Of a DNA stretch of 64,000 nt, positions 10,344 to 53,977 are shown in pieces. A program made the translations under genes and the position numbers. Under the pieces are notes generated by a model. The model worked only from the letters and a program-made list of their open reading frames with translations, was not told the DNA's origin and did no database searches. Source of the DNA: a virus; IMG/VR virus record IMGVR_UViG_3300050821_017219, positions 14,383-78,382 of that record. The stretch is one strand, 5' to 3'. Position 1 is the first letter of the stretch. Each line of letters starts with the position of its first letter.

Positions 10344-10573
10344 TTCCCCAACCAATGGCTGATCCAGCCAGCCGCAATGAGAACTCCACCCGTCACCTCG
10401 ACGGTCTTCGCGAGGCGCGCCGCCTTCTCGTCGGCGACGCATTGAATTTTGTCAGCATCTGTCACTTGCGGATTGTTGAGGCAGGGCAAGAACGCACCCT
10501 TGCGCAGCGTCAGAAGCAGACCGGTTCCACCAACAACGGCGCCACCGATGAGCAGAGCCGTCGACACGCGCAT
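10340..10573 (-). CDS. Small membrane protein (2 hydrophobic segments)
   Basis: LLIGGAVVGGTGLLL and GGVLIAAGW. Confidence 0.6.
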   Translation of the reverse strand: MRVSTALLIGGAVVGGTGLLLTLRKGAFLPCLNNPQVTDADKIQCVADEKAARLAKTVEVTGGVLIAAGWISHWLGK

Positions 10574-11070
10574 CAGACAGGCTTGCCGGCGTTCGCCGCG
10601 ATGTTCGTCGCGAGGTTGACCAGGATAAGCGCGCCCAATCCGATGCCCGCCGTCGCGAAGCCGACGTTGCGATTGGCGGGGGAGACCAGACCGACGACGA
10701 AGCCGCCGAGCGCCGTCGCACCGACGCCGACGCTGCCCCCACCGACTGCTCCGCCGAGGATGTCGACGGGCTTCGCCATCGCCCCTCCGAACGCGCCGAG
10801 ACCCCCGCCGACCGCGGCGCCGAGACCGAGGTAGCCGAGGGCGCCACCGATGGCGCTGTTGCTGGTAGGGTTGGCGTAGGCGAGACCGCGGTCGCGACGA
10901 CGAGAAAGTCGGTGAGACATGTTTCGCTTCTTTTTCTGCTGCTTTGACGCTGCTTTGCGTTGAATGCGGTAGGCGATGGCTGCGGCTTGCGCGGGTGGGT
11001 AGCCGTCGCGGCGAAGGGTCGCGATGTTGCGGCTTCGGGTAGCGTCGCTTGAGCCTCGGAGGAGAGGCAT
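10573..11070 (-). CDS. Basic N-terminal domain + NP motif + Gly-zipper membrane protein (putative virion protein)
   Basis: MPLLRGSS..RNIATL..GYPPAQAAAIAY phage-type small domain, RRRDRGLAYANP, three Gly-rich hydrophobic helices. Confidence 0.65.
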   Translation of the reverse strand: MPLLRGSSDATRSRNIATLRRDGYPPAQAAAIAYRIQRKAASKQQKKKRNMSHRLSRRRDRGLAYANPTSNSAIGGALGYLGLGAAVGGGLGAFGGAMAKPVDILGGAVGGGSVGVGATALGGFVVGLVSPANRNVGFATAGIGLGALILVNLATNIAANAGKPV

Positions 11071-11151
11071 GCGTCTACTCTAGCAGCGACGTCGATTCGG
11101 CGGTAGAGTCAAGTAGTAGACATGCGCCGTCAGACGAGACGTTGCTGAGAC

Positions 11152-11889
11152 ATGCTTGACTTCCCCGCCGCCGCCGCTGCACTCTGGGCGATCACCGCTG
11201 CGACGGGGGTAAAGCCCGAGCATCTGTTGCCGCCGTTGTTTTTGGAGAGCGGATTCGATCCGAGCATCCCGAATGCGGCAGGGCAGCCATTTTATGGGAT
11301 CAACCAGGCATCGACGCAGCTGATCTCCACCTATGCCGGAGTCGATCCGCAGACGTATCTGACGTGGCCGGCGTCACAGCAGCTCTCGACGGTCGTCAAG
11401 GGAATGATCGCAGACATCGTCCACCGGTACGGTCCGATCCGAAGTGCGACCAGAATGTATCAAGCGAATTTCCTGCCAGCGACGCTACCGACCGCGCGAC
11501 AGCTTTCGGATGTTCTGACGTCGCCGCCGTCACCCTTCTACAATGCCAACTCGGGACTCGACGCGAACCACGACGGCGCCATTACCCTCGGCGACCTCGC
11601 GGTAAAGATGACGCAGATGGCGCATCGCCCACAGGTGCAGCAGGCGATTCGCGACACCTACGCGGCGCGTGACGGCGCAACCGCTTCGGCGTCAGCTGCG
11701 GCATCGCCGACGGACATCAACGAGATCGTCTACGGCGACGACTTCAGCTTCATGCAGCAAAATCCGACGCTACGAAACGCGTTGGTCGTTGCTGGCATCC
11801 TCGCGGTTGGCGGCGGTGTCATCTACGCCATCGAGACGCGGCGGTTGGATCGATTTATTCTACCGAAGCGAAACCGACGTCGCCGTTGA
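11152..11889 (+). CDS. Lytic transglycosylase (lysozyme-like) with C-terminal TM anchor and basic tail
   Basis: LFLESGFDP (catalytic Glu), FYGINQ, YNANSGLDANHDGAIT; TM LVVAGILAVGGGVIYAI followed by KRNRRRR. Confidence 0.78.
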   Translation: MLDFPAAAAALWAITAATGVKPEHLLPPLFLESGFDPSIPNAAGQPFYGINQASTQLISTYAGVDPQTYLTWPASQQLSTVVKGMIADIVHRYGPIRSATRMYQANFLPATLPTARQLSDVLTSPPSPFYNANSGLDANHDGAITLGDLAVKMTQMAHRPQVQQAIRDTYAARDGATASASAAASPTDINEIVYGDDFSFMQQNPTLRNALVVAGILAVGGGVIYAIETRRLDRFILPKRNRRRR

Positions 11890-11922
11890 ATCGATTCATC
11901 TAAAAGAATCTGAGAATCACAA

Positions 11923-13476: not shown

Positions 13477-13490
13477 AAAGGAGACTAAAA

Positions 13491-13898: not shown

Positions 13899-13908
13899 AT
13901 CGCGACGT

Positions 13909-15147: not shown

Positions 15148-15160
15148 GACGCCGTCTCCA

Positions 15161-17322: not shown

Positions 17323-17741
17323 GGGTTCTGGTCTGCGGCGGTCGCGACTATCGCGGCATCGAATGCGTCAACGCGACGCTCGATCGCCTCCACGCCGTCT
17401 ACGGCATCGAGGTGGTCATCCATAGCGGCGTCGGTAGTCTTACTGATTTTTACGCCGGAGGATGGGCGACTCATCACGGCGTTGGCCAGCATGTTTTTCG
17501 CGCAGATTTCAGAAGCTACGGCAAGTCTGCCGGCCCGCGCCGCAACGCCGAGATGCTCCGCAAAGGGAAGCCTGACCTGGTCGTGGTCTTCCCGGGGAGA
17601 TGCGGAACGCGCGACATGTTTCACAAGTCGATCCGCGTCGGTGTCGCTGTCGTCGAAATAATGTCGTCGCGCGTCGTAAAAATTCATGGCGAGGCCGTTC
17701 GATACGCGCGCGCCTTCGCTGAAGAAAAGGCGACGCCATGA
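17319..17741 (+). CDS. SLOG-family (DUF2493/YspA-like) protein
   Basis: MRVLVCGGRDY...YGKSAGPRRNAEML..KPDLVVVFPG..GTRDM. Confidence 0.82.
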   Translation: MRVLVCGGRDYRGIECVNATLDRLHAVYGIEVVIHSGVGSLTDFYAGGWATHHGVGQHVFRADFRSYGKSAGPRRNAEMLRKGKPDLVVVFPGRCGTRDMFHKSIRVGVAVVEIMSSRVVKIHGEAVRYARAFAEEKATP

Positions 17742-17872
17742 CGCTGCCGATTTTTTGGATGATTCTGCTGCTCGGCGCCTTCGCTATCGTTTTCTGCGGT
17801 CTGCTGATCTGGCTGTCATTCGTCGAGACGAAGTTTTTAGACGGCTCCAACAAAAACGGCGACGGCGAATGA
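17738..17872 (+). CDS. 44-aa membrane peptide (not in the ORF track)
   Basis: MTLPIFWMILLLGAFAIVFCGLLIWLSF...; ATGA overlaps with both neighbours. Confidence 0.55.
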   Translation: MTLPIFWMILLLGAFAIVFCGLLIWLSFVETKFLDGSNKNGDGE

Positions 17873-19584
17873 CCGCCGCCAACCCGAAACGGCCGTCACC
17901 CCTGGCGGCTGCGGCAGCCATCGTTGACGACGACAGCAACGCCAACGGCGGCGACTTCGACGGCATCAGCGGCATCGTCGCTAAAATTCAACAACAGAAT
18001 CAATCGTCGACGACTCCGACTGCTTCTGCTTCGACACCGCCACCAACAACGCCGCCGAAGCAACGCCAGCAGCCACCGGCGAACACCAAGCGCTTCGCGA
18101 AGACCGACACCGGCAACGCCGAGCGACTCGCCTACTACTTCGGGCAGCGCTTCCGCTACGTCGAGGAGTGGGACGAATTTCTGGTCTGGCGATCGACCCA
18201 CTGGCAACGCGACCCCCAGCACGTTCGGGTGGAGGCGTTGACGAAGGAGGTCATCGCCAAAATTCGCGACGAAGCGCGTGGCTTCGGATCAACGACAGCA
18301 GAAGGTCGCGCGCTCTACGCATGGAGTTTAGAAAGTCAGAAGCGGGCGAAGCGTCAGGCGATGGCCGCGCTCTCCCGAAGCGAGCTGGGGGTAGCCGTCT
18401 CCCACGAGAAGTTGGACGCCAACGCGTGGCTGCTGAACGTCAAGAACGGCGTTTTAGATCTACGCAGCGGTGAACTGTCGCCGCATCGACCGACCGACTT
18501 GATCACACGCGTCGCCGACGTCAGATTCGATCGCAAAGCTAAAGCCGAAAATTTCAAACGATTTCTGTCGCGTGTGTTGCCGGATGAAGAGACGCGTCTA
18601 TTTTTGCAGCGCTTCATCGGCTACAGCCTCACGGGGGATGTGGGGGAGCGCGTTTTCGTCGTTTGCTACGGCGGTGGCCGCAACGGCAAGTCGGTGTTGC
18701 TGCGCATCATCCAAGCGATGCTCGGCAAATATTCGACGACCTGCGCGCCTGGTCTTTTGATGGCGCGCAAGGATGAAGCTCACCCCGCCGACGTCGCCGA
18801 CTTATTTGGCGCGAGGTTGGCGGTGGCTTCTGAAGTCAAAAAAGGCCGAACGTTCGACGAAGAGAAGGTCAAGCGCATCACCGGCAACGACATGCTCAAG
18901 GCGCGGCGGATGCGCGAGAATTTCTGGGAGTTCTTGCCGACGCACAAGATCATCTTGGCGACCAACCACAAGCCGAGGGTGGCGGATGCGACCGACAGTT
19001 TTTGGGACCGCATCGCGCTCATCCCGTTCGACGTGCGCATCGACGATGGTGAAGTCGATCGAAGTCTCGCCGAGCGTCTGATCAAGGAGGAGCTCTCCGG
19101 CATCCTTACGTGGGCGATGGAGGGCTGCTTGGCGTGGCAGAAGGAGGGGCTGCGCATCCCGAAGGCCATCGTCGACGCGACGCGGGAGTATCGCGCTGCC
19201 GAGGACGTCGTAGGGGGCTTCGTGGGCGAACGCTGCTTGTTCAGCACCATTGAGTTTGAGTCGATAGCGACGCTCATGGCGGCGGCGCAGAAGTGGTGCG
19301 CGACCAACGAACGCTTTCCCTTCAGCAAAAAAGACCTGGGCGAGTGGTTGAAGCAGCACAAGTGCATCGAGGGCCGAGATAAAGCCTGCAAAGTGCGTGG
19401 ATGGAAGGGAATTCGCCTACGAACGCTCTCCGAAATGGCTCCAGACGTTCAAGACGTTCTAGACTCAAATTTACCCTTATCGGTAGGATCGGGAGTTACA
19501 GATCCCAATACGCGCGCCATAGGTAAAACAGCGTCTGAAACGGCTAGAACGTCTAACGCTAAAAAAGGCGATAAAATCAACTAG
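17869..19584 (+). CDS. D5/P4-family SF3 helicase (D5_N + helicase + wHTH), no primase domain
   Basis: TDTGNAERL, LNVKNGVLDL, Walker A GGGRNGKS, LATNHKPRV, RIALIPF. Confidence 0.9.
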   Translation: MTAANPKRPSPLAAAAAIVDDDSNANGGDFDGISGIVAKIQQQNQSSTTPTASASTPPPTTPPKQRQQPPANTKRFAKTDTGNAERLAYYFGQRFRYVEEWDEFLVWRSTHWQRDPQHVRVEALTKEVIAKIRDEARGFGSTTAEGRALYAWSLESQKRAKRQAMAALSRSELGVAVSHEKLDANAWLLNVKNGVLDLRSGELSPHRPTDLITRVADVRFDRKAKAENFKRFLSRVLPDEETRLFLQRFIGYSLTGDVGERVFVVCYGGGRNGKSVLLRIIQAMLGKYSTTCAPGLLMARKDEAHPADVADLFGARLAVASEVKKGRTFDEEKVKRITGNDMLKARRMRENFWEFLPTHKIILATNHKPRVADATDSFWDRIALIPFDVRIDDGEVDRSLAERLIKEELSGILTWAMEGCLAWQKEGLRIPKAIVDATREYRAAEDVVGGFVGERCLFSTIEFESIATLMAAAQKWCATNERFPFSKKDLGEWLKQHKCIEGRDKACKVRGWKGIRLRTLSEMAPDVQDVLDSNLPLSVGSGVTDPNTRAIGKTASETARTSNAKKGDKIN

Positions 19585-36995: not shown

Positions 36996-37801
36996 ATACC
37001 ACCGTCACGTGCGTCTATCGCATCGCGCAAGGCGGCGCGGCGTTGACGACGCTTCAGTCGAAGGTCGCCGCCGTCGTCGTCAACTCTTCCATTCTGTCGA
37101 CGCTCGGCGCGCGTATCACGAGCGACGTCACTACCATCGCCGCCGGTTTCGCCATCCGAACCATCGTCTTTTCGATCGTGCCGACGGTCGCAGCCGGCGC
37201 GACGGCAGCGCTCAACTCCAACGACTTCCTCTCCGGCGTGTCGGTCTTCTCGGCCGGCTCTGACTACATTCTGCCGCCCGTCGTCAAATTCGCTGGTGGA
37301 AACCCCTACAAAATCGCGTCGGCGCGCGCGACGTTGAAGGCCGTCGGCGTCAACGTCGTCGCTGGTGGCTCAGGCTATACCGCAGCGGCGGTCGCAACAG
37401 CCGTCGGTGCGATCAACCCCAACCATGACATCAAGCTCGGCCAAGCCCCACCGAAGCCTGTCTTGATGACGTTGACGCTTGGCGGTGGCGGAGCCATCGT
37501 CGGCGTCGCCATCACCGATGCGGGCGCTAACTACGAAGGCGTTCCCTCGGTTGTCGTCACCGACGTCGTTGGGGGTGGAAGCGGCGCCATCATCGATCTG
37601 TCGATGGGCGTCAGCGCCGTCGATGTGATCTACCCCGGGCAAGGCTTCCAGGCGGTTCCGGCGTGTCAGCTGATCCCAGCCTTCCGTGTGATGTTCCCCG
37701 ACGGACCTTCGCAGGCGGCACCTTTCGCGAACCTCATGACGACGGCGATTGCGCAAGCAGTGATGACGCCGGTCGTTGCGGATGCGCCGGTGTTGTCATG
37801 A
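36992..37801 (+). CDS. Beta-repeat structural protein
   Basis: Four VxVxxxGxxY/F repeats (AGSDY, GGSGY, AGANY, PGQGF) as in virion/surface proteins. Confidence 0.6.
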   Translation: MNTTVTCVYRIAQGGAALTTLQSKVAAVVVNSSILSTLGARITSDVTTIAAGFAIRTIVFSIVPTVAAGATAALNSNDFLSGVSVFSAGSDYILPPVVKFAGGNPYKIASARATLKAVGVNVVAGGSGYTAAAVATAVGAINPNHDIKLGQAPPKPVLMTLTLGGGGAIVGVAITDAGANYEGVPSVVVTDVVGGGSGAIIDLSMGVSAVDVIYPGQGFQAVPACQLIPAFRVMFPDGPSQAAPFANLMTTAIAQAVMTPVVADAPVLS

Positions 37802-39303
37802 CGCGCGAAGATGACAACTACGACGAGCGAGACGACGATGACGGCGAAGGCGAGCCGCCTGAAGAAGTCGTCGAAGCCAAAACGAAGGCAATACCGCCGA
37901 AGAAGCGCAATCCGAAAGCGCGAAACGGCGTCGGTGGAGCGTTGGGTGGTGCGCCCGAAGATTCGCCGCGTGAAGCTGAGCTGCTCTGGCTGTGGATTCT
38001 CGCGCGACTTCCCAGCGAAGGCCGCTCCGCCTACGACGTGACCATCCAAGTCTTGCAGCTCGATCCACCCGCCTCAAACGGCCGCGCCTTCATGGTGGGA
38101 AGCTTCGGCGGTGGCGCAATCCGCGGCAGCGAAACTGTTGATCCGTCGCAGGCGTTGATCAGCTACGTCACCGACAACTTTCACATGCCGCGGTCTCAGT
38201 CGAGACAGTCGGTGACCTACCAGATCCGCTTCATCTGGGCATCGAACAGCCAGCAGATGAAGCGCGGCGAGCTGACGCTTCCCCCGCGCGACGAGATCAT
38301 CGCCGTTCGACAAGAAGAGGCGCGCCAGCGGCAGGCCAACGGCGAGCCGGTGACCCCCTACAACCCGCCGCCGATGCATCAGCAAGGCGTCGGTGTGCCG
38401 CAACCATGGCCGCAGCCGTTTGGCTTTCCGCCGTCTTACTACCCCCCGCCTGCCGGTGGCGATGCGCAGATGATGCCGCAGCTGCTGACGATGATGCAGG
38501 AGATGTGGCGCGCGCAGCTCGAAGGCCGCCCACCCAATCCCGCAGCTGCCGGTGTCGCTGCGCCACCACCCGCGCCTCTCAACGAAGACAGCATCGTACA
38601 GAAAACGACCGCCAGCGTCTTGATGGCGCTGCAGCAAGCCGGCATCTTGACGAAGCCAACCGCCGGTGTCGCCGCCGCAACGCCAACGCCTGCGGTCTCG
38701 CCTGCGTCGCCGGCTGCATCGAATCCATTCGCAGGCATGATGGAAAAAGCCGTCGGTCGCATGTTCGAGGCGGCCGTCGGTGAGGTGGAGAAAAGCGTCA
38801 AGAAGACCATCGCTGGCGTCGGCAAGCCGCAAGACGACGACTATTACTTCGACGACGATGACGATGGAAAGAAAGGCGGATCATCTTCGCCTGCATCTGC
38901 AGCCGTTGGCGTTGGCGCGCCACCGACACCGCCGAAAGAAGACGCCTTCGATCTGCCGTGGGCGACGAAGCCAGTCGCCGATGCGAAGTGGGGCGACGGC
39001 CGCCCAGTCGTCTACGCCGAAGACAAAGAGACCGGCAACTTCTCGTGGCAGGGCGCGCTCATGAGCAACCCCACCGTGCTCGAGAAGGGGATGGAAGCCG
39101 CGCAGGGTCTCGCCGGAGCGTTGACGAACATCGTGAAGCAGGTCGGCGCCAAAGCTTCCGCCGGCTTCGCGCAGGCGCCGCAGAATCCGCCGCCGCAGAT
39201 GACGCCGAAGACGGTTTCGATACCGCCTGCCGCAACGGTTGTGGCGGAGACGCCCGCGGGCGCGGTGGATGCGACGCCAAAGTCTTGGAAAGACGGCGAC
39301 TAG
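37798..39303 (+). CDS. Pro/Gln-rich multidomain protein with repeated GVG/GVA motifs (putative scaffold/assembly protein)
   Basis: ATGA coupling; six GV(G/A) motifs in low-complexity linkers. Confidence 0.65.
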   Translation: MTREDDNYDERDDDDGEGEPPEEVVEAKTKAIPPKKRNPKARNGVGGALGGAPEDSPREAELLWLWILARLPSEGRSAYDVTIQVLQLDPPASNGRAFMVGSFGGGAIRGSETVDPSQALISYVTDNFHMPRSQSRQSVTYQIRFIWASNSQQMKRGELTLPPRDEIIAVRQEEARQRQANGEPVTPYNPPPMHQQGVGVPQPWPQPFGFPPSYYPPPAGGDAQMMPQLLTMMQEMWRAQLEGRPPNPAAAGVAAPPPAPLNEDSIVQKTTASVLMALQQAGILTKPTAGVAAATPTPAVSPASPAASNPFAGMMEKAVGRMFEAAVGEVEKSVKKTIAGVGKPQDDDYYFDDDDDGKKGGSSSPASAAVGVGAPPTPPKEDAFDLPWATKPVADAKWGDGRPVVYAEDKETGNFSWQGALMSNPTVLEKGMEAAQGLAGALTNIVKQVGAKASAGFAQAPQNPPPQMTPKTVSIPPAATVVAETPAGAVDATPKSWKDGD

Positions 39304-39324: not shown

Positions 39325-40665
39325 GTGACAACGACGCCGCATTGGCCGCAGGTAGTGGTGCCGCGCCGTGTCGGTGTCGCCGGTCTGACCGATTTTGAGG
39401 CGCACTTCGCGTCCGACCCCAACTTTGCGTCGGCGTGGAACGATGTCGGTGGCCAGCTCCTCGCCGAAGGCGCTAGCAGCTCGCAGGTCGACCAAGCGAA
39501 GACGTGGTTCGTCAACGCCGTCGAGGGAGCTGTCCCTGGGGTAACCGGCGACCAGGCCATCGCCTCCGCGAAGCAGCTCGTGCTGCTTGGGCAGACGGTC
39601 ATGGGCGCCGTCGCTACGGTGCAAGGTCTTCTCCAGACCGTCGAAAGTGGGTCGGTCCCACAAATTACGCAGGCGTTTACCGGCGTCTTGATCAGCCTCG
39701 GCGTCGGCACTGGGTTAGTCTCGGCCGGTATCGGCGCGGCCATCGCGCTCGGCATCTCCGTCGTGTTGGCGGCGCTTCAAGACCTTGGATTTTTTACTAG
39801 CAACGCCCCTCCGACATTTGACATCCCTGGGTGCGGCAAGTGGTACTGGGTGCCGGACTACCTCATCGGATGCATGGGCGTTCAAGCGAAGGGCGGCACT
39901 GCCAACGATCCGCTCTTGACGCAACCCTTTCATGTCGCGCCGGGCTCCCCCAACTGGCGGACGTTCCCGGTGCCGGGCAACATCATCCCATACGTCGAAG
40001 GCGCGGACAAAGAATGGTACGTCCCTGGGTTGGGGATGGTTGGCCACTGGAAGGGCATCTTCATCGACTACGGCGCCGTCGATGCAAGCGATGGGCGGCG
40101 GCCGATCGATCGCGCGTTTCCGAATTTTCGGCAGCTCGAAGCGGACAGCGGACCGGGAGCAAGCGACTTCCAGCGCGCGTTCGGTGGCGCATGGCGAAGC
40201 AACGCGGAGTATGCGTTCAACGGGTTGAAGCCGCAGCCAGACGAACAGGTGCTGCTCCATACCATTCGATTGTGGAACCGTTCGCACGATGGCCCCGCAG
40301 TTACGCTCGATCAAAGCAACGCGACCTACGCCAATTCGCTCGTCGACGCCGCCGTCAACAACGTGATGTCGAGTGACATCGGTTTGCTGTCTGGCCAAAG
40401 CTTGCTCGTCAACGCCGGTGGGTTGAAAACCCAAACGCCACGTGTCGTCACGCTGCATCTAGGCGGTAGTTTCGATTCAGCGACGTCGCCAACAACCGGC
40501 CTTATGTCGTCGACGGGTGGAAAAATTCTCGCGGGTACAGCTGCAATCGGCGGCGCCGCACTGCTCGGAAGCGCGGCGTACGCCTTCGCAAAGAAAGAGA
40601 GCATCGGCGCCGTCTGGAAGAACGTCTTCAAGACGGTGACGAAACCTCTGAGAGGTGGAAGATGA
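39325..40665 (+). CDS. Membrane-associated putative virion protein
   Basis: N-terminal TTPHWPQ..VGVAG; internal and C-terminal hydrophobic helices. Confidence 0.7.
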   Translation: MTTTPHWPQVVVPRRVGVAGLTDFEAHFASDPNFASAWNDVGGQLLAEGASSSQVDQAKTWFVNAVEGAVPGVTGDQAIASAKQLVLLGQTVMGAVATVQGLLQTVESGSVPQITQAFTGVLISLGVGTGLVSAGIGAAIALGISVVLAALQDLGFFTSNAPPTFDIPGCGKWYWVPDYLIGCMGVQAKGGTANDPLLTQPFHVAPGSPNWRTFPVPGNIIPYVEGADKEWYVPGLGMVGHWKGIFIDYGAVDASDGRRPIDRAFPNFRQLEADSGPGASDFQRAFGGAWRSNAEYAFNGLKPQPDEQVLLHTIRLWNRSHDGPAVTLDQSNATYANSLVDAAVNNVMSSDIGLLSGQSLLVNAGGLKTQTPRVVTLHLGGSFDSATSPTTGLMSSTGGKILAGTAAIGGAALLGSAAYAFAKKESIGAVWKNVFKTVTKPLRGGR

Positions 40666-40988
40666 GACGAAGACACGGTCGTAGAAATCCTTCGACGCAA
40701 ACGACGACGCTGCTGATCGCCGGTGGCGGTTTGGCGCTGCTCGGCGTTGGCGTCTACCTCTTCACGAAGAAGCCAGCGGCGGCGACAACGACGACTGCGA
40801 TCACGGCGACGTCACCAAATTCTCGACCGTTCGGTGACCCCGCCAACACGTCGAGCGTCGCGTTCGCGTGCAACACCTGCTGGAAGCTGAACGCACTCGG
40901 CCATCCGACGCAGGCGACGGCGTGGTGCACGAAATGCACCGCCAACGGTGGGGTAGTACCGCAAAGCGCTGCTCAGTTGTATACTTGA
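40662..40988 (+). CDS. Small membrane protein (RRNP + TM + Cys-rich domain)
   Basis: MRRRHGRRNP, TM LLIAGGGLALLGVGVYLF, CxxC pairs. Confidence 0.7.
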   Translation: MRRRHGRRNPSTQTTTLLIAGGGLALLGVGVYLFTKKPAAATTTTAITATSPNSRPFGDPANTSSVAFACNTCWKLNALGHPTQATAWCTKCTANGGVVPQSAAQLYT

Positions 40989-41036: not shown

Positions 41037-41393
41037 ATGGCCGACATTTACGACACGCTGACCCCCGCCGACCAGGCAACGGTTCGCTCGAAGCTGCTCG
41101 CGATCGTGCAGTCGAAGCCCTGCCCGAACGTCGACGTGACAGGCATCACCACCGTCGACAGCCTCACCAGCGCGGACAATCGCGGCATCGCCATCGATTG
41201 CTTCCAGCAAGCGCACAAGGTTGGCGCCGTCGCAGGCGCGCTCGATCAGGCGACTTACAGCGCGCTCGTCGGATGGTGGCCCGCGCGGCCGTTGTGGCAG
41301 AAAGCGGCGATCGTCGGCGGAGGCGTCGCAGCGGTGGCGGTTGGATACCATCTCATGGCGAAGCGAAGCCGTCGGCGTCGGCTAAGTCGTTGA
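41037..41393 (+). CDS. Peptidoglycan-binding-like domain with C-terminal TM and basic tail
   Basis: AIDCFQQAHKV..VAGALDQATYSAL resembles PG_binding_1; TM followed by KRSRRRR. Confidence 0.6.
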   Translation: MADIYDTLTPADQATVRSKLLAIVQSKPCPNVDVTGITTVDSLTSADNRGIAIDCFQQAHKVGAVAGALDQATYSALVGWWPARPLWQKAAIVGGGVAAVAVGYHLMAKRSRRRRLSR

Positions 41394-45345: not shown

Positions 45346-45349
45346 AAAG

Positions 45350-47653
45350 ATGAGCGACTTCTCGCCTTCGCTGCAAAACGCGGCCGCCGCCGGTATCCCG
45401 ACGACGCGGCAGCCGTATCTCGACGGCAACGCTGGCGTTCGCCAGAGCCTCGAAGCGATGGCGCTGAAGATGCGCGAGGGCCGCGTTGATCCTGCGGTAG
45501 TCGGTTGGGCGGGTGGCGTTTTGAAGGATGCGGGGTTGGACGGTCGCGACGGCTTTCCGATCCGTCGTCAAGTCTCGGCGTTGCTCGAAGCGTTGCGCAG
45601 CCAAGTCATTTACGCGCCCGATGCGTACGGCGCTGAAGTCGTGTCGAGCGCGGCTGCAACGCTCTGTCTACGACCGAACCTCTGTCTTCACCGCGGCGAC
45701 TGTTTCCCGAGCGGGACGTTGCTTCTTCGAGAAGACTACGAGCTCGTTCCGATCGAAAAGATCAAGGTAGGCGAGCGAATCTGGGGGCTCGACGGTTGGA
45801 CGACCATCAAAGCGACCGCCTTCAAGGGCAACCTCGCCGTCGACGCGATCGAGATGAACAACGGCTCGACGATGTTTTTGACCGGCGAGCACAAGGTCTT
45901 CGTCGGGCGATGCAAACACGATCGGACGATCTGCCCGTCGTGCTATCCGGCGCTACGACGAGAGCGCTTCGAGCGGGTCTCTGTTGCGGACCTTCAAGAA
46001 GGAGAGGTTCTTCTTCAACCCGAGCGAATCGCCTTCGGCTCTGAAGAACCAGATCCCGGACGCATGTATATCGAAGGGCTGTACATCTCCGACGGTTGGT
46101 CGGAAGAAAACCGCTTCGCCATCTCCGGCAAGGACGGCTGTCGAAAAGAAGCGCAGAAGCACGAGGTCAAAGCGATCTGTGAGCGGCTCGGCATCCCGAC
46201 CTACTGGCACAAGAGGTACATCCGCATCAACGATGCCGCATGGGCCAATCGTCTAGCGCAGCGTGGAACGCGTGCACGCTTCAAGCACATCGAGACGCTC
46301 AACCTCAACGAAGCCGCCGCCGAAGCACTGCTCCGCGGGGTTATGGCCGACAGTACCGCGAACACGAACGGCCCCGGTCGAACATTCTCGACGACGTCTC
46401 GAGAGCTGATGGTTCAGATGCGCATCTTGCAGCGCATGTTCGGCGTATCGACGGGGCTCAAAATGTTGACCCCCGCGCAACACGGCGGCGTTGGAACGCA
46501 TAATCTGTGGCGTCTCGGCGTCCGAGCGACGAACGGCCGTACCGAAAAAACGCTGGCCGTGAAGTCGATCGACCGCGCCGTCCGAAAGGTTCCGTGTTGG
46601 GACATCCAGACGGAAGACCACTACGTCTACCTCGCCGAGCATGATGTGACGGTCTCCAACTGTGACGATCTCGCCGTCGCGCTTGGTTCTGCAACCCTTT
46701 CGTTGGGCATTCCGACCGTCATCGTGAAGCAAAACTTCGGCGGCGAAAATCAAGAGCATGTTCTCATCGCCTTCCAGGACGAGAACCAAGAGTGGACCTA
46801 CGCTGATCCCTCGACGAAGCTTCCCGTCGGTCGCGCACCGCAAGGTGCCGTCGATGAGATCTGGATCGACCCGATGGGGCCGGTTGGACCGATTCCAGAG
46901 GCTGGCGCTGAAATCGTCACGCTTGGATCTGCGATAGCGTCTTCGTTTTCGTCTGAGATTCATTCGCCAGTCGAAAGACGGATGCATTTCGCCGGCAACC
47001 ATTGGTGGCATCACGATGCGTCGGGTGTCTCTGTCTACGTCGACGACGCATGGCTTTCGACAGGTCTCTCTGGAATCCCTTCCGAAGTCGGCGTCGGCAC
47101 CATCTTCGGTGCGCCAACGGTCAACGAGATGATCGATTTCGCTTCGGTGGTCGGCGCCGAGATGAAAGACATCGGCGCGGTACCGACGACGTGCACCGGT
47201 TGGCCGAAAGACCCCGTCGGCTACCAAGCGTGGCTGATGGACATGCAAGACACGATGGCCGAGTTTCAGACGGCGAGCGACGCAGCGTTGGCGAAATTCA
47301 ACTCGACGTCGAAGTATCTGCGCGACTTCACGTCGGCACCGGAGGAAATGAACGCGCTCGCCGATGTGGCTCGACAAATCACCGACTTGGATCGCCGACT
47401 GCGCGCAGCAACGGGTGGCGCCGGTTGCTCGGCCCCGACCTACGCCGACGTGCAGCAACCCCAGGCTATCGATTGGGACCTGCAGGGCTATCAAGGCGCC
47501 GACTTCGCCGCGAAGGTCGTCGAAAACGCCGGCAAAAAAATCGCAGGCGCGGCGCAACCAGCGGGCATCGCGTTTGGTGGTCTCATCGTCGGCGCTGCGC
47601 TCGCCGTCGCCGGCTTGATCGTGTTGGACCACATGCTGCCGTCGCGTCGTTAG
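45350..47653 (+). CDS. Transglutaminase-like cysteine protease precursor with intein and C-terminal TM anchor
   Basis: Spliced extein gives RGD-CDDLAVALGS...EHVLI...WTYADPS (Cys-His-Asp triad); C-terminal TM followed by PSRR. Confidence 0.82.
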   Translation: MSDFSPSLQNAAAAGIPTTRQPYLDGNAGVRQSLEAMALKMREGRVDPAVVGWAGGVLKDAGLDGRDGFPIRRQVSALLEALRSQVIYAPDAYGAEVVSSAAATLCLRPNLCLHRGDCFPSGTLLLREDYELVPIEKIKVGERIWGLDGWTTIKATAFKGNLAVDAIEMNNGSTMFLTGEHKVFVGRCKHDRTICPSCYPALRRERFERVSVADLQEGEVLLQPERIAFGSEEPDPGRMYIEGLYISDGWSEENRFAISGKDGCRKEAQKHEVKAICERLGIPTYWHKRYIRINDAAWANRLAQRGTRARFKHIETLNLNEAAAEALLRGVMADSTANTNGPGRTFSTTSRELMVQMRILQRMFGVSTGLKMLTPAQHGGVGTHNLWRLGVRATNGRTEKTLAVKSIDRAVRKVPCWDIQTEDHYVYLAEHDVTVSNCDDLAVALGSATLSLGIPTVIVKQNFGGENQEHVLIAFQDENQEWTYADPSTKLPVGRAPQGAVDEIWIDPMGPVGPIPEAGAEIVTLGSAIASSFSSEIHSPVERRMHFAGNHWWHHDASGVSVYVDDAWLSTGLSGIPSEVGVGTIFGAPTVNEMIDFASVVGAEMKDIGAVPTTCTGWPKDPVGYQAWLMDMQDTMAEFQTASDAALAKFNSTSKYLRDFTSAPEEMNALADVARQITDLDRRLRAATGGAGCSAPTYADVQQPQAIDWDLQGYQGADFAAKVVENAGKKIAGAAQPAGIAFGGLIVGAALAVAGLIVLDHMLPSRR
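45701..46660 (+). mobile_element. Intein (320 aa) with LAGLIDADG-type endonuclease region
   Basis: Block A CFPSGTLL, block B LTGEHKVF, IEGLYISDG and LLRGVMAD blocks, block F VPCWDIQT, ends VSN|C. Confidence 0.9.
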
Positions 47654-47660
47654 GCGTCGA

Positions 47661-48125
47661 ATGATCATCGTCAAAGGGAAGGCAGTCAGCTTCGACATGG
47701 CGAACGGCGACGAAATCGATGCGCCAGCGCGCTCGGCGATGTTGCACGATCCGCGCGGCAAATTCTGGCGTCGAAATTCTATTCTTGTTGCGCCATTCAA
47801 ACGCGGCGGCGGTGGTGAAGTCGACGGCGACAGCGACTCGAAAGACTATCTCGGCCGAACGCATCTGACGCGCGTCGGTGATGTACCGCTTCCCCCGAAA
47901 GAGTTGTCGGCCTGGACGTACGAAGGCGAAGTGAGCGAGATTTGGTACACGCGTCACGGCGCAAAGTACGGCGGCAAGCGGTTCCGCCACGCGTTCAACA
48001 AGTCGTTGCTCGGCCGGCTCGTGAAGGGAACCGGCAAGGCGCGGCTGTACAGCCGTGGTAGTCTCTACCGATTGGAGCTACCGCGCGGCGCCATTGTCGA
48101 TGGGAGAGGATTTTTATGGCCGTGA
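47661..48125 (+). CDS. Basic hypothetical protein (putative virion/core protein)
   Basis: GEVSEIWYTR...KRFRHAF; located in the structural block. Confidence 0.6.
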   Translation: MIIVKGKAVSFDMANGDEIDAPARSAMLHDPRGKFWRRNSILVAPFKRGGGGEVDGDSDSKDYLGRTHLTRVGDVPLPPKELSAWTYEGEVSEIWYTRHGAKYGGKRFRHAFNKSLLGRLVKGTGKARLYSRGSLYRLELPRGAIVDGRGFLWP

Positions 48126-48637
48126 TCTGGAAGTCTGTCGTCGGTTACGAGGGGTTGTACGACGTCTCTGACGAAGGACAGATCCGGCGTGTGGCGCCGG
48201 GGCGACGTACACACCCCGGGCGTATCGTTGTCGGTGGCGTCTCGAAGGGGCGTTACCGCATCGTCAAACTCTATCGAGGAACGACGAAGAGCGACTTCCG
48301 CGGGTTCTCCGTTCACGGTCTCGTCGCGGCAGCCTTTCTTGGCCCGCGTCCGGAAAGGGGCGAGGTGAACCACAAGAACGGCATCAAGACGGACAACAGG
48401 CTCGAGAATTTAGAGTACACAACCCGCCTCGGAAACGCGCGCCACGCAGCAGTGAACGGGCTGCTCCGAAACGGCGAACGAGTCGTCGGCTCCAAGCTTA
48501 CGGCCGACAATGTTCGCTCCATCCGCGCTCTGTCCGCTTTTGGCGTTCCGAAGCGACGGATCGCGAAGATGTTCGGCATCGCGCATTCGACCACGCAAAG
48601 CATCATCGACCGTCGTTGGTGGAAGCACGTCGCATGA
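48116..48637 (+). CDS. NUMOD4-HNH homing endonuclease
   Basis: WKSVVGYEGLYDVSDEGQIR, VHGLVAAAFLG, VNHKNGIKTDNRLENLEY. Confidence 0.92.
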   Translation: MAVIWKSVVGYEGLYDVSDEGQIRRVAPGRRTHPGRIVVGGVSKGRYRIVKLYRGTTKSDFRGFSVHGLVAAAFLGPRPERGEVNHKNGIKTDNRLENLEYTTRLGNARHAAVNGLLRNGERVVGSKLTADNVRSIRALSAFGVPKRRIAKMFGIAHSTTQSIIDRRWWKHVA

Positions 48638-50166
48638 TCGATTATTCGCGCATGATTGACGCCAGCCGCAACGCGCCCGAACACGCGGCATCTGCGCCCG
48701 TCTTCTACGAAACAGCGAAGACGAAGACGCGCGCGCGTAGCCGTCGTTTGACAAAGCGCAAGAAACAAGCTTCACTTACAAAAGCGCGCGACCGGAAATC
48801 CACGAACCGTCGTCGTCGAAGCACCCCAGGGAAGGCTGCATCGATGGCAAAGCGAAGAATGTCGAGAAAGCAGCGCGCAGCGGCGCTGAAGAACCTCAAG
48901 AAGGCTCGCTCCGCCCGTCGGAGCAAAGCTTCTCGGCGCGGGATGCGCGTTCGGCTTCATCGGAAGTCGCCCCGTCGGCGCCGCTACATGACCGGCGGTG
49001 GTGTGAAGACGAAGCGTCGTCGTCGCCGCAAGGCCAAGCCGGAAGCAGAAGCAACACCGAAGCGTCGTCGGCGTAAGTCGGGCGGCAAGCGGAAGTCGGC
49101 CAAGCGAGTCGCGGCTGGCAAGAAGGCCGCTCGTACGCGCAAGCGCCGTCACTCCCGCAAGGGTGGCGCACCGAAACGCCGTCGTCGTCGGTCGCGCAAA
49201 GCCTCGGCGGCTCCCCGGCGGCGGCGTCGGCGTTCACGTCGGTCGTCTCCCCGTCGTCGTCGGCGCAGCCGCAAGACCGGTCGGGCGATGTCGATGCGAC
49301 TCCCCCGTCGGGCGCGCAAGGTCTACGTCGTCGCCGCCGAGAAGCGCCGTCGTCGTGGACGCGGCCGTCGTCGTCACGGCGCGATGGAAAATCCGCTCTC
49401 TGGCGTCGAGCTGTTCGTCGGAAGCCTCTTCGGGTTGACCGGCTTCGCCATCGGCGATCTCACCGACCGCCTCATCGCGACCCACGCGTTGACGTTGAAG
49501 AGCGCCGCGACCACCACCACGCCGGCCCTCTACGCCGACAACCCCCCGACGACCGGCAGCTACGCTGGCCTCTTCAATCCGACGGCGATCACTTCGCCGA
49601 TGAACCTCCCCCGATGGGCGAACGCGGTCGGTGCTCCGGCGCTGATCTTCACCGTCGCACACTTCGTCAAGTCGCCGGTCGCGCGCAGTTCGATGCAGTT
49701 CTTCGCCTTCGGTTACGGCGTCCGTGGTGTCGGCAAAGGCATCATGGACCTCATGGCCAAAGTGACGACCAGCTTCGGCCTCGGTCAGCGCCTCTACGAC
49801 GGCGAGATGCGAGCGCAGGTGCTCAAGGCCAACAGCGGCAGCAACCAAGCGGCAGCGCTTGCGAACTTGCCCGCCGCTGGCCTCGGTCAACCGGCTCGGC
49901 AATTGGCGGTAGCGCCTTGCGCCAATTGCGGCAATTGCGCGAAATGCAAAGCAGCAGCGGCACCGAGCGGCGTGGGTTGGCCTTCGCAGCCCCGCGAAAT
50001 CACCAGCCAGTCGACGCAGACGCAACCGCAGGCTCCCGTATCCGCGACTGCCCCACCGCGTCAGCCCCCGCCTCCCCCCAACGCTCCTCCGATTCGACAG
50101 CAGTCGTTTCTCACCGGCGCAGCGGCGCATCCTACCTACAAGAAGTGGGGCGGCTACGATTTGTGA
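48634..50166 (+). CDS. Arg/Lys-rich protamine-like protein with C-terminal hydrophobic domain (putative DNA-condensing core protein); alternative start 48844
   Basis: About 180 aa dominated by R/K/S with SPRRRR-type motifs, then AMENP, hydrophobic helices and CxxCxxCxxC. Confidence 0.75.
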   Translation: MIDYSRMIDASRNAPEHAASAPVFYETAKTKTRARSRRLTKRKKQASLTKARDRKSTNRRRRSTPGKAASMAKRRMSRKQRAAALKNLKKARSARRSKASRRGMRVRLHRKSPRRRRYMTGGGVKTKRRRRRKAKPEAEATPKRRRRKSGGKRKSAKRVAAGKKAARTRKRRHSRKGGAPKRRRRRSRKASAAPRRRRRRSRRSSPRRRRRSRKTGRAMSMRLPRRARKVYVVAAEKRRRRGRGRRRHGAMENPLSGVELFVGSLFGLTGFAIGDLTDRLIATHALTLKSAATTTTPALYADNPPTTGSYAGLFNPTAITSPMNLPRWANAVGAPALIFTVAHFVKSPVARSSMQFFAFGYGVRGVGKGIMDLMAKVTTSFGLGQRLYDGEMRAQVLKANSGSNQAAALANLPAAGLGQPARQLAVAPCANCGNCAKCKAAAAPSGVGWPSQPREITSQSTQTQPQAPVSATAPPRQPPPPPNAPPIRQQSFLTGAAAHPTYKKWGGYDL

Positions 50167-50324: not shown

Positions 50325-51692
50325 ATGGCTACGCAAATCGTTTCTCGACCCAGTCAGTTCAAGACGCGAGCGAAGATGCTCTCGCGCGCCGAGCGCGGCA
50401 TCGCTCTCGTCAAGGCCGTCGGAACCGGTCTTCCCATCGACGCGGCGAAGATCAAGGCGTCAGGGAATGACCCCCGGCGCGGCATGGGCGCCGTCCTCGA
50501 CCTCATCAAGGCGTCGAAGGAAAACCCCTGGTGGAACATGGACGTCGTCGAGCAGGTCCGTTGGACCCTCGGCGGACCCCAGACCAATCAGTCGATCACC
50601 GAAAACTTCGGTGCGACCATCGACTTGTTCGCTTCGGGGAAGTCGCCGGTCGACATCGACTTCGTCGAGACGACCATGGCGCAGCCTGGTCAGACGCAGA
50701 CCTTCTTCGTCGCCTGCTATGTCGGCTTCCACCTCGAGCCCGACCCCATGACGTTCACCCTCCGAGGGAACGCGTGGACGCATCCGACCGCGGCGGTCGC
50801 GAAGCCCCCGTCTCCCGACGTGTTCAGCGCGAACGACGTCGCCAACGGCGCGCTCGGCCCCGCCTTCGCCGGCACGCCGACGCAGACGATGCTTCCCGCG
50901 ATCATGGAGCACGGCTGGTGGCTCAACCGAGCCTTCTGGGAGCTCGTGCGCGCCTACAACTTCCGATGGAAGATCGGCCAGCACATCAACATCATGGACG
51001 AGCAGTTGCGCCACACGGCGTACATGCCCCCGAACGCTCAGGAAGGCAGCGCGTCGAGCTCGGAAGTGGATCCGTTCAATCTCATCAATCAGATGAACAC
51101 CCGCTACGACACGCTCGGAACGGCGCTCGACTTCCTCCCGATCGACTTCTTGAGGATCGGATCAGTCGGAAGCACGACCGTCAACAACGGCCGCTTCACG
51201 CCGAGCCGTGACTTCGATACCGTCGGCGTCACCTACGGTGGTTCCGACCTCCGAAGCATGCTGCGCGGCAACAGCGAGTTCCGCCAGCTGTGCGTTCCCT
51301 ACGTGATCGAGCCGGGCGTTCCCATCGGCATCTTCCTCCAGGAATGCGACAGCGTTCAGGCGGACATCATGCGCGCGCTGCTCAGCATCTCGCAGGTCGG
51401 CGGAAACTTCGGCGGATCGATTCCCCCGGCAGTCACCCCCGACGGCAACATCAACGGCGGCTTCACGAGCACGGGCGCCGCGGTCATGTTGGAGCGCACC
51501 CTCGACGGTGCAGACGTCCCCCAGCAGATCGACACCCAGCGCGTCATCTACAAGAGCGGCGTCGGCAAGATCACGCTGCCGATCAAGGGCTTCGAGGTCA
51601 CGAAGGATTGGTACAACCAACTCTCTTCGGATTCGGACATCCGAGACATCGTGCTCTCCGACTGCGGGATGCGATTCGCGGCCTACGGTTGA
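50325..51692 (+). CDS. Putative major capsid protein (non-HK97, possibly jelly-roll)
   Basis: Very strong C/G-ending codon bias by eye, GGAG RBS, beta-rich, follows the core-like protein; no HK97 signature seen. Confidence 0.5.
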   Translation: MATQIVSRPSQFKTRAKMLSRAERGIALVKAVGTGLPIDAAKIKASGNDPRRGMGAVLDLIKASKENPWWNMDVVEQVRWTLGGPQTNQSITENFGATIDLFASGKSPVDIDFVETTMAQPGQTQTFFVACYVGFHLEPDPMTFTLRGNAWTHPTAAVAKPPSPDVFSANDVANGALGPAFAGTPTQTMLPAIMEHGWWLNRAFWELVRAYNFRWKIGQHINIMDEQLRHTAYMPPNAQEGSASSSEVDPFNLINQMNTRYDTLGTALDFLPIDFLRIGSVGSTTVNNGRFTPSRDFDTVGVTYGGSDLRSMLRGNSEFRQLCVPYVIEPGVPIGIFLQECDSVQADIMRALLSISQVGGNFGGSIPPAVTPDGNINGGFTSTGAAVMLERTLDGADVPQQIDTQRVIYKSGVGKITLPIKGFEVTKDWYNQLSSDSDIRDIVLSDCGMRFAAYG

Positions 51693-51720
51693 TCGGAGCG
51701 CCGCCTAAAGGAGGCGTTTC

Positions 51721-52470
51721 ATGACTCAGCCGTTGATCACGATGACGGAAGAGCAGCTCCAAAGGCTGCTCGCTTCGTCGCAGAAAACCACAACCGGAGT
51801 GGCTGGCCCGCCCAAACAGCGCGTTCAAGGCTTCGGTTGCCCCGGCGATGGAAACCCGCAGCTCGACGCGGTCTACGCGATGCTTGCTGCGGGTAACCCC
51901 CGTCTCGCCTTGGCCCGCGCCCGCGGCGTGCCGTTCGCGCCGTTCTACATCAACATCCGCGCTACCTTTCCCGATACGGCCACCACGGTCGTGCCGAGCG
52001 TCGGTAGCGACGTGAAGATCTCGCAAGACACGCTCGTCAACGAGATGGTCGTGCGCATCTTCAACCGATCGTTGACGGCGAATCAGAACCAGTTCCAGGC
52101 GCAATCGGATTGGTACTACACGTGGCAGAGCGGCATCGAAGCAACGTTCGACATCCAAGGCGCACCCCGCCCGACGATTGCGGACCGCTTCACGCCCCTC
52201 GCCAATCTGCTCGACGCCTTCAACGGCTACAGCAAGCGCGCCGGTCACGGGTGGATCCTTACCTACCAGCAGCAGCTCTTCATGGCGTTCAACGCTACGA
52301 TCACGCTGCCGACGGCGCCCATCGAAGTCGTGTGCACGTTCGCCTGCGAGACACCGGTGTCGCAAGCGTTTACGCGCATGTCCAATAGCGAAGCCATCGC
52401 GTCGCTGCGGAGCGAATTCGGTGTCGAGATCGCAGACGCCTACGAGCAACAGGCGCTTCTCTACGGTTGA
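51721..52470 (+). CDS. Putative second capsid protein (beta-rich)
   Basis: AAGGAGG RBS, strong codon bias, N-terminal GVAG/GFG motifs. Confidence 0.45.
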   Translation: MTQPLITMTEEQLQRLLASSQKTTTGVAGPPKQRVQGFGCPGDGNPQLDAVYAMLAAGNPRLALARARGVPFAPFYINIRATFPDTATTVVPSVGSDVKISQDTLVNEMVVRIFNRSLTANQNQFQAQSDWYYTWQSGIEATFDIQGAPRPTIADRFTPLANLLDAFNGYSKRAGHGWILTYQQQLFMAFNATITLPTAPIEVVCTFACETPVSQAFTRMSNSEAIASLRSEFGVEIADAYEQQALLYG

Positions 52471-52475
52471 TCTGA

Positions 52476-53327
52476 ATGCGCTCTCTCGCCGAAAAAGCGT
52501 CGCTCGGCGCCGAGACGGGAAGCCGCCGCGTCTTTGAAATTTCAACGTCAGGAATTGACGAAAATCTTCAGAGTCTCGGCGGCGATCCGTTTGGTGGGTC
52601 GTCGTACGTCGGGTTGCGTGTTCCGACGTTGGCGACGCCATCGCTGCCCAACGGCGGCGGTCGATATTTGTTCAACCTCGCGTCGTTTTCGATCGCGACT
52701 GGCATCAAGGCGAGAATCGTCGGCTACCGCCAGCTGTTGACGCTCGGCGCCGTCATCACCGCCGCCGGCAGCGAAACAGCGGCGCGCTTCGTCGAGATGG
52801 AGGTCACGACGCCGACGTTTCGTCTACCCGACGGCAACGTCAGCTGGCACATTCATCGCCTCGGCCCGCCGAACAGCCAAGGCTTTCCGCGTGGCATCGC
52901 CGACAAGACTGACTTGCGCAGCTTCAAGAAATACTGGTGTGAAAATCCTGCGCTGCTCTACCAGAGCTACGCGATTCCCGCTGGCAACGCGTTCTACCCC
53001 GACTTGACGGCCTATACGCCACCGAATGGCGGCAAGCCGTGGGGTGTTGCGTTACGCGCGGGCGAACAAGCAACGTTTTACGATTTGCGAACCGAGTGGC
53101 GTACGCACGGCGGTTGGCATTCGCTCGACGTCGAGCTGGATGGACCAGACACCGTCTGCTTCTTCGCGTCTGTGAAGCAAAGCGTTGGCGCATCAGAAGC
53201 CGGTGCGTTGGCTGCGATTCCGAATGGGATGCCGGAAGAGCAATTCGTCAGCGCTTTTGCGGCGAGCGTGACCGGAGCAATCTACTGGCGCGTTGCGGGC
53301 GCGCTGATGGTGGAGGTACGTCCGTGA
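52476..53327 (+). CDS. Putative capsid-associated beta-rich protein
   Basis: Ends YWRVAGALMVEV like a terminal jelly-roll strand. Confidence 0.45.
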   Translation: MRSLAEKASLGAETGSRRVFEISTSGIDENLQSLGGDPFGGSSYVGLRVPTLATPSLPNGGGRYLFNLASFSIATGIKARIVGYRQLLTLGAVITAAGSETAARFVEMEVTTPTFRLPDGNVSWHIHRLGPPNSQGFPRGIADKTDLRSFKKYWCENPALLYQSYAIPAGNAFYPDLTAYTPPNGGKPWGVALRAGEQATFYDLRTEWRTHGGWHSLDVELDGPDTVCFFASVKQSVGASEAGALAAIPNGMPEEQFVSAFAASVTGAIYWRVAGALMVEVRP

Positions 53328-53977
53328 GATGGTCGGCCGCTCGCCAAGGTCGCCGTAGCTATTATCGCGCCGAGAGCTCGAAGGGCTATTACCGCATCGA
53401 ACATCGCCCGAGCGGTTGGGTCGTCGACATGACTATACACAACGGGCGTGATCATGTCATCGGAACATTCTCATCACTTGCCGGAGCCAAAACAGCTGCC
53501 TCGCAGCATGATCGAGGGTTTATGAGTCGTCGTCGTAGAAGCCGTCGTCGCCACCACGCTGCAGAAGCGAACCCCATCTCGTCGTCGACCAAGAAGTGGC
53601 TTGTCATCGGTGGCCTCACCGCAGTTGCCGGAGTCGGTCTCTACCTCTACATGAAGAAGATGTCGGCCTTGACGCAGATGCCGATGCCTGCGGCGCTACC
53701 GCCCGGTACTGCGCCGATCAACCTAACGCTGTCGCCCGGCAACCTGTCGGCGGTCACACTCAGCGCCGGCAACAAGGCCGCGTTGAGCCTCTTCGCGCCG
53801 CAGGGCTCAACGTTGCAGGTGATGAACTGGAACCCCGTCGCGCCGCTCGCTCCGGCGACGACGTCGAACTACGAAGTCGTCGCGGCGACGCCAGGCAACT
53901 CGACCGTCACCGCGACCTACAAAGACGCGTCGGGCGCAACGCAGACGGCGACCATCCCCATCGTCGTCACCGCTTAG
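53324..53977 (+). CDS. Small domain + Arg-rich + NP motif + TM + Ig-like protein (alternative start 53522)
   Basis: GGAGG-GTG start; SRRRRSRRRHHAAEANP, TM WLVIGGLTAVAGVGLYLYM. Confidence 0.65.
   Translation: MRWSAARQGRRSYYRAESSKGYYRIEHRPSGWVVDMTIHNGRDHVIGTFSSLAGAKTAASQHDRGFMSRRRRSRRRHHAAEANPISSSTKKWLVIGGLTAVAGVGLYLYMKKMSALTQMPMPAALPPGTAPINLTLSPGNLSAVTLSAGNKAALSLFAPQGSTLQVMNWNPVAPLAPATTSNYEVVAATPGNSTVTATYKDASGATQTATIPIVVTA

Follow-up and report, generated by a model that had tools for sequence, protein, structure and literature searches.

Four proteins that share an arginine-rich tract, an Asn-Pro (NP) dipeptide and a hydrophobic segment, in that order, were identified in a 64,000-nucleotide stretch of viral DNA (the window) from the IMG/VR record IMGVR_UViG_3300050821_017219. 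The window covers bases 14383-78382 of a single contig of 78,382 bp, which belongs to an uncultured virus from a soil-type metagenome. The four proteins (P0001, P0002, P0003 and P0004) fall into three different kinds, namely the anchors P0002 and P0004, the core protein P0003, and P0001, whose gene lies in a lysis-like cassette. Judged from their sequences and those of their relatives, the NP at the joint of basic segments with predicted membrane helices is conserved and non-random. Within this virus lineage, the combination (optional soluble module)-(Arg arm)-NP-(helix) behaves as a cassette, gained and lost as a whole. We infer, with a rough probability of 40%, that NP acts as a helix-stopping juxtamembrane hinge that ends a cytoplasmic polybasic arm.

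The whole contig was scanned in six frames for at least four Arg or Lys residues within 12 amino acids, followed by NP and then by a hydrophobic 19-mer within 35 amino acids. The scan returned exactly four matches, P0001 to P0004, and none came from the Arg-rich spurious frames of this GC-rich genome. A sequence-only reading of the window had claimed this shared order for four open reading frames (ORFs), and both the translations and the scan bear it out. The mean Kyte-Doolittle values of the hydrophobic 19-mers are 1.6-2.0 in P0002-P0004 and 1.4 in P0001. Five to nine Arg or Lys residues lie on the N-terminal side of the helix, against one or two on the C-terminal side. NP is present in only four of the approximately 17 proteins of the window with predicted membrane helices, and the members of this set that have a helix after an Arg-rich tract are exactly the NP bearers. 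A polybasic tail follows a C-terminal helix in three other proteins (genes 41037, 54414 and 11152), none of which carries NP. NP joints are few per protein and nearly all adjoin a membrane helix, and no long NP-punctuated polyproteins occur. Searches of Pfam, PHROG and the ESM Atlas assigned no family to P0002-P0004, to the P0003 domain or to seven long homologues of P0003. An Arg-NP-helix motif in phages was not met with in literature searches, and we know of no PRD1 or PM2 protein that has been described with a polyarginine-NP joint or a protamine-like arm.

P0003 is the product of a single-copy core gene that adjoins the capsid candidate. The P0003 family has more than 76 clusters, of which 76, defined at 90% identity, were analysed, and 32 loci show the fused arm-NP-domain architecture. 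The arms are hypervariable (100-400 aa, 29-49% Arg or Lys) and are followed by G-A-M-E-N-P-[LM]-[ST]-G-V-E-L-F-V-G and a conserved domain that contains two or three hydrophobic stretches. All 76 homologues retain the Asn and 74 retain the Pro, both exceptions reading Asn-Ala. Glu precedes the Asn in 65 of the 76, Met occupies the position before that in 58, and a further Glu stands five residues after the Pro in 70. The conserved stretch continues uninterrupted from G-A-M-E-N-P into the helix (L/M-x-G-x-E-L-F-V-G), so the NP of P0003 is the first part of a folded or embedded domain and not an isolated tag. Within the arms, extra NPs are not enriched (10 seen against 12 expected). In five of the 76 homologues, two NPs bracket an Arg-rich peptide of 14-19 aa; as a general feature of the arms, NP-delimited Arg peptides were rejected on the same 10 against 12.

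Loss of NP from orthologues had been named as a refutation of the sequence-only reading. This refutation fails, and retention of NP extends beyond P0003. NP is found in all 32 homologues of P0001, about 10 of which have no N-terminal domain and begin at a Met immediately ahead of the basic tract. In the P0004 family, seven of eight homologues carry NP, and the sole NP-less member also lacks the whole Arg tail. The L014 orthologue of P0002 (L-numbers denote relative loci) retains RRNP. The description of 'cargo' carried by the basic-NP-helix unit is a fair one, as optional soluble N-terminal modules stand upstream of the unit.

P0002 and P0004, which are paralogous to each other (phmmer E 5.6e-6 and 4.7e-7), belong to a multi-copy anchor family. 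Members of this family are built of a basic tail, usually a Trp, a Gly-rich helix ending in G-x-G-x-Y, a Ser/Thr/Pro/Ala linker and a small domain. A hidden Markov model made from 15 members detected 66 copies in 33 non-redundant relative loci, with up to nine copies per locus. NP occurs in 18 of the 52 non-redundant N-terminal anchors from the relatives and N-G-P in one, while 34 lack NP. NP is nevertheless the second commonest dipeptide of the anchor tails (18 of 52 against 1.9 expected from within-tail shuffles, with none of 20,000 shuffles reaching 18), a figure that overstates the significance because the anchor paralogues are not independent. The commonest spacing in the NP-bearing anchors is NP-x4-W. 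The NP-less anchors, which include all those of L004, L024-L026 and L033 and two of this genome, have Ser-Thr, Thr-Thr, Ser-Ser or Asn-x at the equivalent positions (-6/-5 relative to the Trp). The anchor core R-L-L-W-I-G-G occurs in L039 and L041 both bare and with an added M-x-RR-x-RRNP-H-x head. Anchor paralogues with Lys-only tails, or with nearly no tail, carry the same anchor.

These observations can be accommodated by a juxtamembrane hinge. The polybasic segment (a tail of 8-17 aa in P0002 and P0004, an arm of 220 aa in P0003) would hold its end of the protein in the cytoplasm according to the positive-inside rule, and the charged arm might bind DNA, the acidic head groups of lipids or an acidic surface of the capsid. 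NP, about one helical turn before an interfacial Trp or the first hydrophobic residues, would serve as a helix stop and N-cap. It would thereby end the helix-prone Arg/Ala segment, set the start of the membrane helix and free the arm to move apart from its anchor. Asn, Ser and Thr are classic helix N-cap residues (Asx/ST N-caps, PMC4515027). The N-cap reading is favoured because the NP-less anchors hold Ser, Thr or Asn at the positions that NP occupies before the Trp; these three residues share the NP positions in the anchor family, and in the P0003 and P0001 families Asn is never exchanged. The hinge is further favoured because NP comes and goes with the arm, as in L039 and L041 and in the NP-less relative of P0004, and because in P0003 the conserved residues lead from the motif directly into the helix.

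The closest general likeness is to type II signal anchors that obey von Heijne's positive-inside rule. These also have an N-terminal positive cluster, an uncleaved helix, Asn, Ser or Thr together with Pro at the helix start, and a C-terminal domain that is presumably extracytoplasmic. As in such anchors, net positive charge was found here to precede a single hydrophobic helix that is at least about 19 aa long. Unlike such anchors, the proteins of this virus carry far more charges than topology needs (five to nine Arg, or an arm of 220 aa), Asn is strictly invariant in two families, and NP also occurs after a helix and at helix-free joints. The tails of P0002 and P0004 might do nothing beyond setting the positive-inside topology, and DNA binding by the Arg segments appears plausible from the sequences only for the long arm of P0003. 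If NP is only a hinge, it represents an elegant but unremarkable way of fastening polybasic arms to membranes.

Several findings weigh against the hinge. None of the 76 P0003 or the 32 P0001 homologues, down to approximately 40% identity, has Ser, Thr or Asp in place of the Asn, a tighter constraint than a plain N-cap would need. A second difficulty comes from P0005, a soluble protein encoded upstream of P0003. Anchored orthologues of P0005 occur in four lineages (L001/L003, L002/L016, L043 and L038; e.g., L001:6887-7882 and L002:7450-8103) and are arranged as helix, x3-6, [KR][EDK]-NP, Gly-rich stretch, basic cluster and domain, with Gly-Pro or Ala-Pro breakers already present. N-capping of the P0005 helix cannot explain this NP, because it follows the helix and other breakers exist. 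Basic-NP joints without a following helix are also present in a D5-like primase-helicase (17686-19584; RRRR-MTAA-NP at residue 66, 17881-17886) and in a 546-aa protein (37663-39303; KKR-NP at residue 83, 37909-37914). The Arg-NP motif is not tied to membranes in this genome. Together, the invariant Asn, the post-helix NP and the helix-free joints favour an Asn-Pro that is recognised or chemically active.

One such role, which is possible but doubtful, is that of a maturation cut mark. NP, often after Glu, Ala, Arg or Lys, would guide a virus-encoded protease or undergo self-cleavage by Asn cyclisation, and Arg peptides, the arm or soluble modules would be released from their membrane tethers after assembly. 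The invariance of Asn and near-invariance of Pro are consistent with this, as are the placement of NP on either side of the helix and at helix-free joints, the optional nature of the upstream soluble modules, the soluble, untethered state of most P0005 orthologues and the few Arg peptides bounded by two NPs. Two candidate NP-reading enzymes can be proposed from their sequences, a conserved, membrane-anchored transglutaminase-like protein encoded nearby and an M10-like zinc peptidase. No Pfam match to an adenain-like protease or to peptidase A24 was obtained among the ORFs scanned. The proposal by the sequence-only reading that NP is a processing signal did not gain support, as no cleavage product was seen, no protease could be linked to the motif and the arms contain no excess of NP. 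In addition, the flanks vary between the putative substrates, which have only NP in common, and 34 of the 52 anchors lack it. Most proteases disfavour a Pro beside the scissile bond.

Known cleavage systems were compared with the junctions. The adenovirus core proteins pVII and pre-mu (pX) are cut by adenain at (M/I/L)XGX-G. They resemble the present proteins in being Arg-rich, protamine-like virion proteins that are processed at short motifs flanking a basic peptide. They differ in that the P0003 arm is fused to a membrane domain and that neither (M/I/L)XGX-G nor (M/I/L)XGG-X is found at its junction, which reads G-A-M-E-N-P. Asn42-Pro43 of reovirus mu1 is a self-cleaving Asn-Pro site. Like mu1 and the NPTH motif of EscU, YscU and FlhB, the present proteins have an Asn-Pro pair with an invariant Asn beside a membrane-associated segment, and NPTH provides a precedent for Asn-Pro self-cleavage (PMC3189125). 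NPTH lies in a folded domain and needs its Thr-His; here, the residues after NP are Leu, Met, Thr, Ser or Ile and then Ser, Thr or Gly, and the upstream region is probably disordered. Autocleavage of the EscU/FlhB type was rejected, since no His is conserved and the post-NP residues vary, although self-cleavage might take another route. A type IV prepilin-like (class III) signal was likewise rejected; Pro and not Gly stands at -1, and the anchors have no Glu at +5.

In its broadest form, which we put forward only tentatively, NP would be the cut code of a large undescribed lineage of membrane-containing prokaryotic viruses. Tethers would first gather protamine-like arms, short Arg peptides and small cargo modules at the assembling viral membrane, and their later release at NP, by a viral protease or by Asn-driven self-cleavage, would serve to condense the genome. 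Bacterial viruses would then have their own equivalent of the core maturation of adenoviruses, and the cytoplasmic face of the membrane would end up facing the DNA. A cut or docking mark would amount to a new maturation code for a widespread group of uncultured viruses with genomes of about 60-80 kb, found here in soil-type metagenomes, and would reveal how genome condensation is tied to the acquisition of a membrane in tail-less membrane viruses.

Docking is an unlikely role for NP. An assembly factor or capsid protein would bind NP in its basic context and recruit the proteins, with bound DNA, to a patch of viral membrane. This would fit the conservation of NP in the P0003, P0001 and P0004 families, the position of the motif, which is always near the membrane on the predicted cytoplasmic side, and the view that PM2-type assembly uses a genome-interacting membrane area (PMC6356626). 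Most membrane proteins of the structural block and whole anchor clades (L004, L024-L026 and L033) lack NP, however, P0001 lies in a lysis-like cassette and no binding partner was identified. The sequence-only reading had also regarded NP as a sorting signal. With NP in only four of about 17 membrane proteins and absent from 34 of 52 relative anchors, NP cannot be a general ticket to the viral membrane, because most membrane proteins and homologous anchors do without it.

It is improbable that the four segments were merely copied from one ancestral N-terminal cassette and that NP has no function of its own. P0002 and P0004 are indeed detectable paralogues, and RRRH-G/H recurs in three of the four tracts, but P0001, P0003 and the P0005-type proteins are dissimilar to the anchors outside the motif, and NP stays fixed while neighbouring residues diverge. 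A twin-arginine (Tat) or other export signal, in which an Arg pair and a moderately hydrophobic Gly/Ala-rich segment direct Tat-dependent insertion, is very improbable despite the RR pairs and Gly/Ala-rich helices, since the S/T-R-R-x-F-L-K-type consensus has hydrophobic residues after RR-x where these proteins have N-P or a spacer of 4-7 aa, homologous anchors have KK, Lys-only tails or almost no tail and no basic pair, and a polybasic arm of 220 aa precedes the motif in P0003.

The Arg arms are predicted to be cytoplasmic (N-in) because positive charge is concentrated before the helix. A hint that fits an N-in, C-out topology comes from a relative, L001:836-1312, which carries a P0001-type N-domain together with a K-S-N-P anchor, followed by a PG_binding_1 match that is marginal (E 6e-5; 23.5 bits, with the cut-off at 23; 23 of the 57 profile positions matched). 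In the PRD1 model, a patch of phage membrane pinches off inwards in the manner of endocytosis (PMC6356626), so that the cytoplasmic face would look at the capsid and not at the DNA. In the PM2 model, a membrane area is thought to interact with the genome during vesicle formation (PMC6356626). The earlier placement of the Arg segments on the inner face of the viral membrane goes further than the charge bias, which points to the cytoplasmic side only; they would face the capsid in a PRD1-like assembly and lie inside only in a PM2-like one. An arm of 220 polyarginine-like residues could not plausibly be exported. As a P0003-type arm (200-400 aa) cannot cross the host membrane, it would lie between capsid and membrane, or else the membrane would not be made by simple inward pinching.

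The positions of the features are given in Table 1.

Table 1. Positions, in the window, of the Arg-NP-helix proteins, their parts and associated genes
Feature	Position	Strand	Remarks
P0003 gene	48634-50166	+	510 aa; short conserved N-terminus; ...RRRHGAME-NP
P0003 protamine-like arm	~48715-49383	+	~220 aa
P0003 junction G-A-M-E-N-P	49378-49395 (NP 49390-49395)	+	
P0003 first helix	49396-49452	+	directly after NP; opens conserved, predicted membrane-associated domain
P0002 gene	40662-40988	+	108 aa; MRRRHGRR-NP; helix ~6 aa after NP
P0002 Arg tail and NP	40665-40691	+	
P0002 signal-anchor helix	40707-40763	+	then Thr/Ala linker and small Cys-rich C-terminal domain
P0004 gene	53522-53977 (ATG start)	+	151 aa; 217 aa if start is GTG 53324
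P0004 Arg tail and NP	53528-53575 (NP 53570-53575)	+	RRRRSRRRHHAAEA-NP; helix 7-9 aa after NP
P0004 anchor helix	53597-53653	+	then linker and beta-rich C-terminal domain
Possible P0004 N-terminal extension	53324-53521	+	66 aa; coding uncertain; GGAGG 7 nt before GTG 53324
P0001 gene	10573-11070	-	165 aa
P0001 N-terminal domain	10927-11070	-	phrog_2423-like, E 1e-16; optional
P0001 joint RRRDRGLAYA-NP	10867-10902	-	after Lys/Arg linker
P0001 hydrophobic region	10591-10854	-	Gly-zipper-like; 5 aa after NP
Possible lysis cassette	9463-11070	-	P0001, 77-aa two-helix protein (10340-10573), 111-aa ORF, Rv2525c-like glycoside hydrolase
Rv2525c-like glycoside hydrolase	9463-10110	-	Pfam E 2.4e-14
P0005	47661-48125		soluble, 154 aa; most orthologues without anchor
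Transglutaminase-like protein	45350-47653		membrane-anchored, conserved, with intein; L001 orthologue matches Transglut_core at E 2.6e-4, below cut-off
M10-like (matrixin-like) zinc peptidase	33182-33712		E 1.1e-5, above Pfam cut-off; in nucleotide-metabolism block
Capsid candidate	50325-51692		beta-rich model; family of 162 representatives at 50% identity
Mirror-build membrane proteins	41037-41393, 53984-54400, 54414-54929		relatives L001:13264 and L039:14742

The window has a G+C content of approximately 60% and encodes a PolA-UDG fusion, a D5-type primase-helicase, a RecD/PIF1-like helicase, Dam, ThyX, a deoxynucleoside monophosphate kinase, an integrase and an intein-bearing gene. Small membrane proteins are abundant in a long plus-strand block. 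Nothing recognisable as a terminase, a portal, an HK97-type capsid protein or a packaging ATPase was found across the 78 kb, and no tRNA genes were found in the window. Walker A motifs are present only in the D5-like helicase, an AAA_24 protein and the RecD/PIF1-like helicase; no packaging ATPase of the FtsK/HerA type was recognised, although a divergent ATPase is possible.

Homologues of the capsid candidate were counted as 50% identity representatives in a library of 1.8 billion proteins. Its structural model, made from an alignment of 77 sequences, is beta-rich with a predicted local distance difference test score of 88.9. Foldseek found no match for the model in PDB or BFVD. The best VIA structural rows were weak, with Z 5.0 for the HCIV-1 capsid protein and Z 3.6-4.2 for SPV1, HHIV-2, P23-77 VP16/VP17 and PRD1 P3. 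The view of the virus as tail-less and membrane-containing, with an internal membrane, is reasonable but unproven; it is reasonable because these weak matches to the modelled capsid candidate are to capsid proteins of internal-membrane viruses. Many small single-pass proteins in a structural block are also a feature of internal-membrane phages (PRD1 P16 and others; PM2 P3 and P6; PMC6356626), although no sequence or fold relationship was found between those proteins and the ones described here. The capsid candidate had no match among deposited phages, and its profile found nothing in the contigs of species-representative genomes. The P0003 profile gave a sole match in the species-representative genomes, L011 (DATJYG010000466.1, 2275 bp), which is binned in a Polyangiaceae metagenome-assembled genome. 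This binning is a weak hint of a myxobacterial host for the lineage, too weak for host assignment.

The genes around P0001 look like a lysis cassette rather than a set of virion structural genes. The sequence-only reading had assigned all four proteins to the viral membrane, which does not suit P0001, as its gene lies in this cassette and outside the structural block. It had also described an N-terminal domain before the basic tract in three of the proteins. For P0001 the domain is real but optional, and for P0004 the claim is uncertain. The G+C content at third codon positions of the possible P0004 extension is 0.56 in all three frames, as in non-coding DNA, against 0.81 downstream, which argues against coding; a comparable extension in two of seven relatives argues for it, as does the ribosome-binding site listed in Table 1.

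The gene calls of two P0003 homologues, P0041 and P0060 (contigs of 74 kb and 58 kb, respectively), begin exactly at M-E-N-P and lack the basic arm. They are either genes that are split at the joint or gene-call artefacts. Scans of IMG/VR for these two homologues gave no match. An internal translation start at the Met of MENP was rejected for the family, since 17 of the 76 homologues have Tyr, Arg, Leu or Lys in place of this Met. No Shine-Dalgarno-like run precedes the Met codon in the displayed sequence of the window, for which no dedicated scan was made.

An HNH/NUMOD4 homing-endonuclease gene (48116-48637) lies between the genes for P0005 and P0003 and overlaps both. The relatives L001 and L002 have no HNH/NUMOD4 gene at this place, and a P0005-type gene is followed there by a different small ORF and then by P0003. 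A further class of membrane proteins has the mirror image of the anchor build. Its members consist of a Ser/Thr/Pro-rich linker, P-W, a Gly-rich helix and a polybasic tail that ends the protein, without NP. The Arg codons in the tracts at 40665-40685, 53528-53551 and 49345-49374 are mostly CGT and AGA, and these codons make up about 12% and 5%, respectively, of the Arg codons in nine reference genes of the window. This bias may reflect avoidance of mRNA structure near the starts, or slow decoding.

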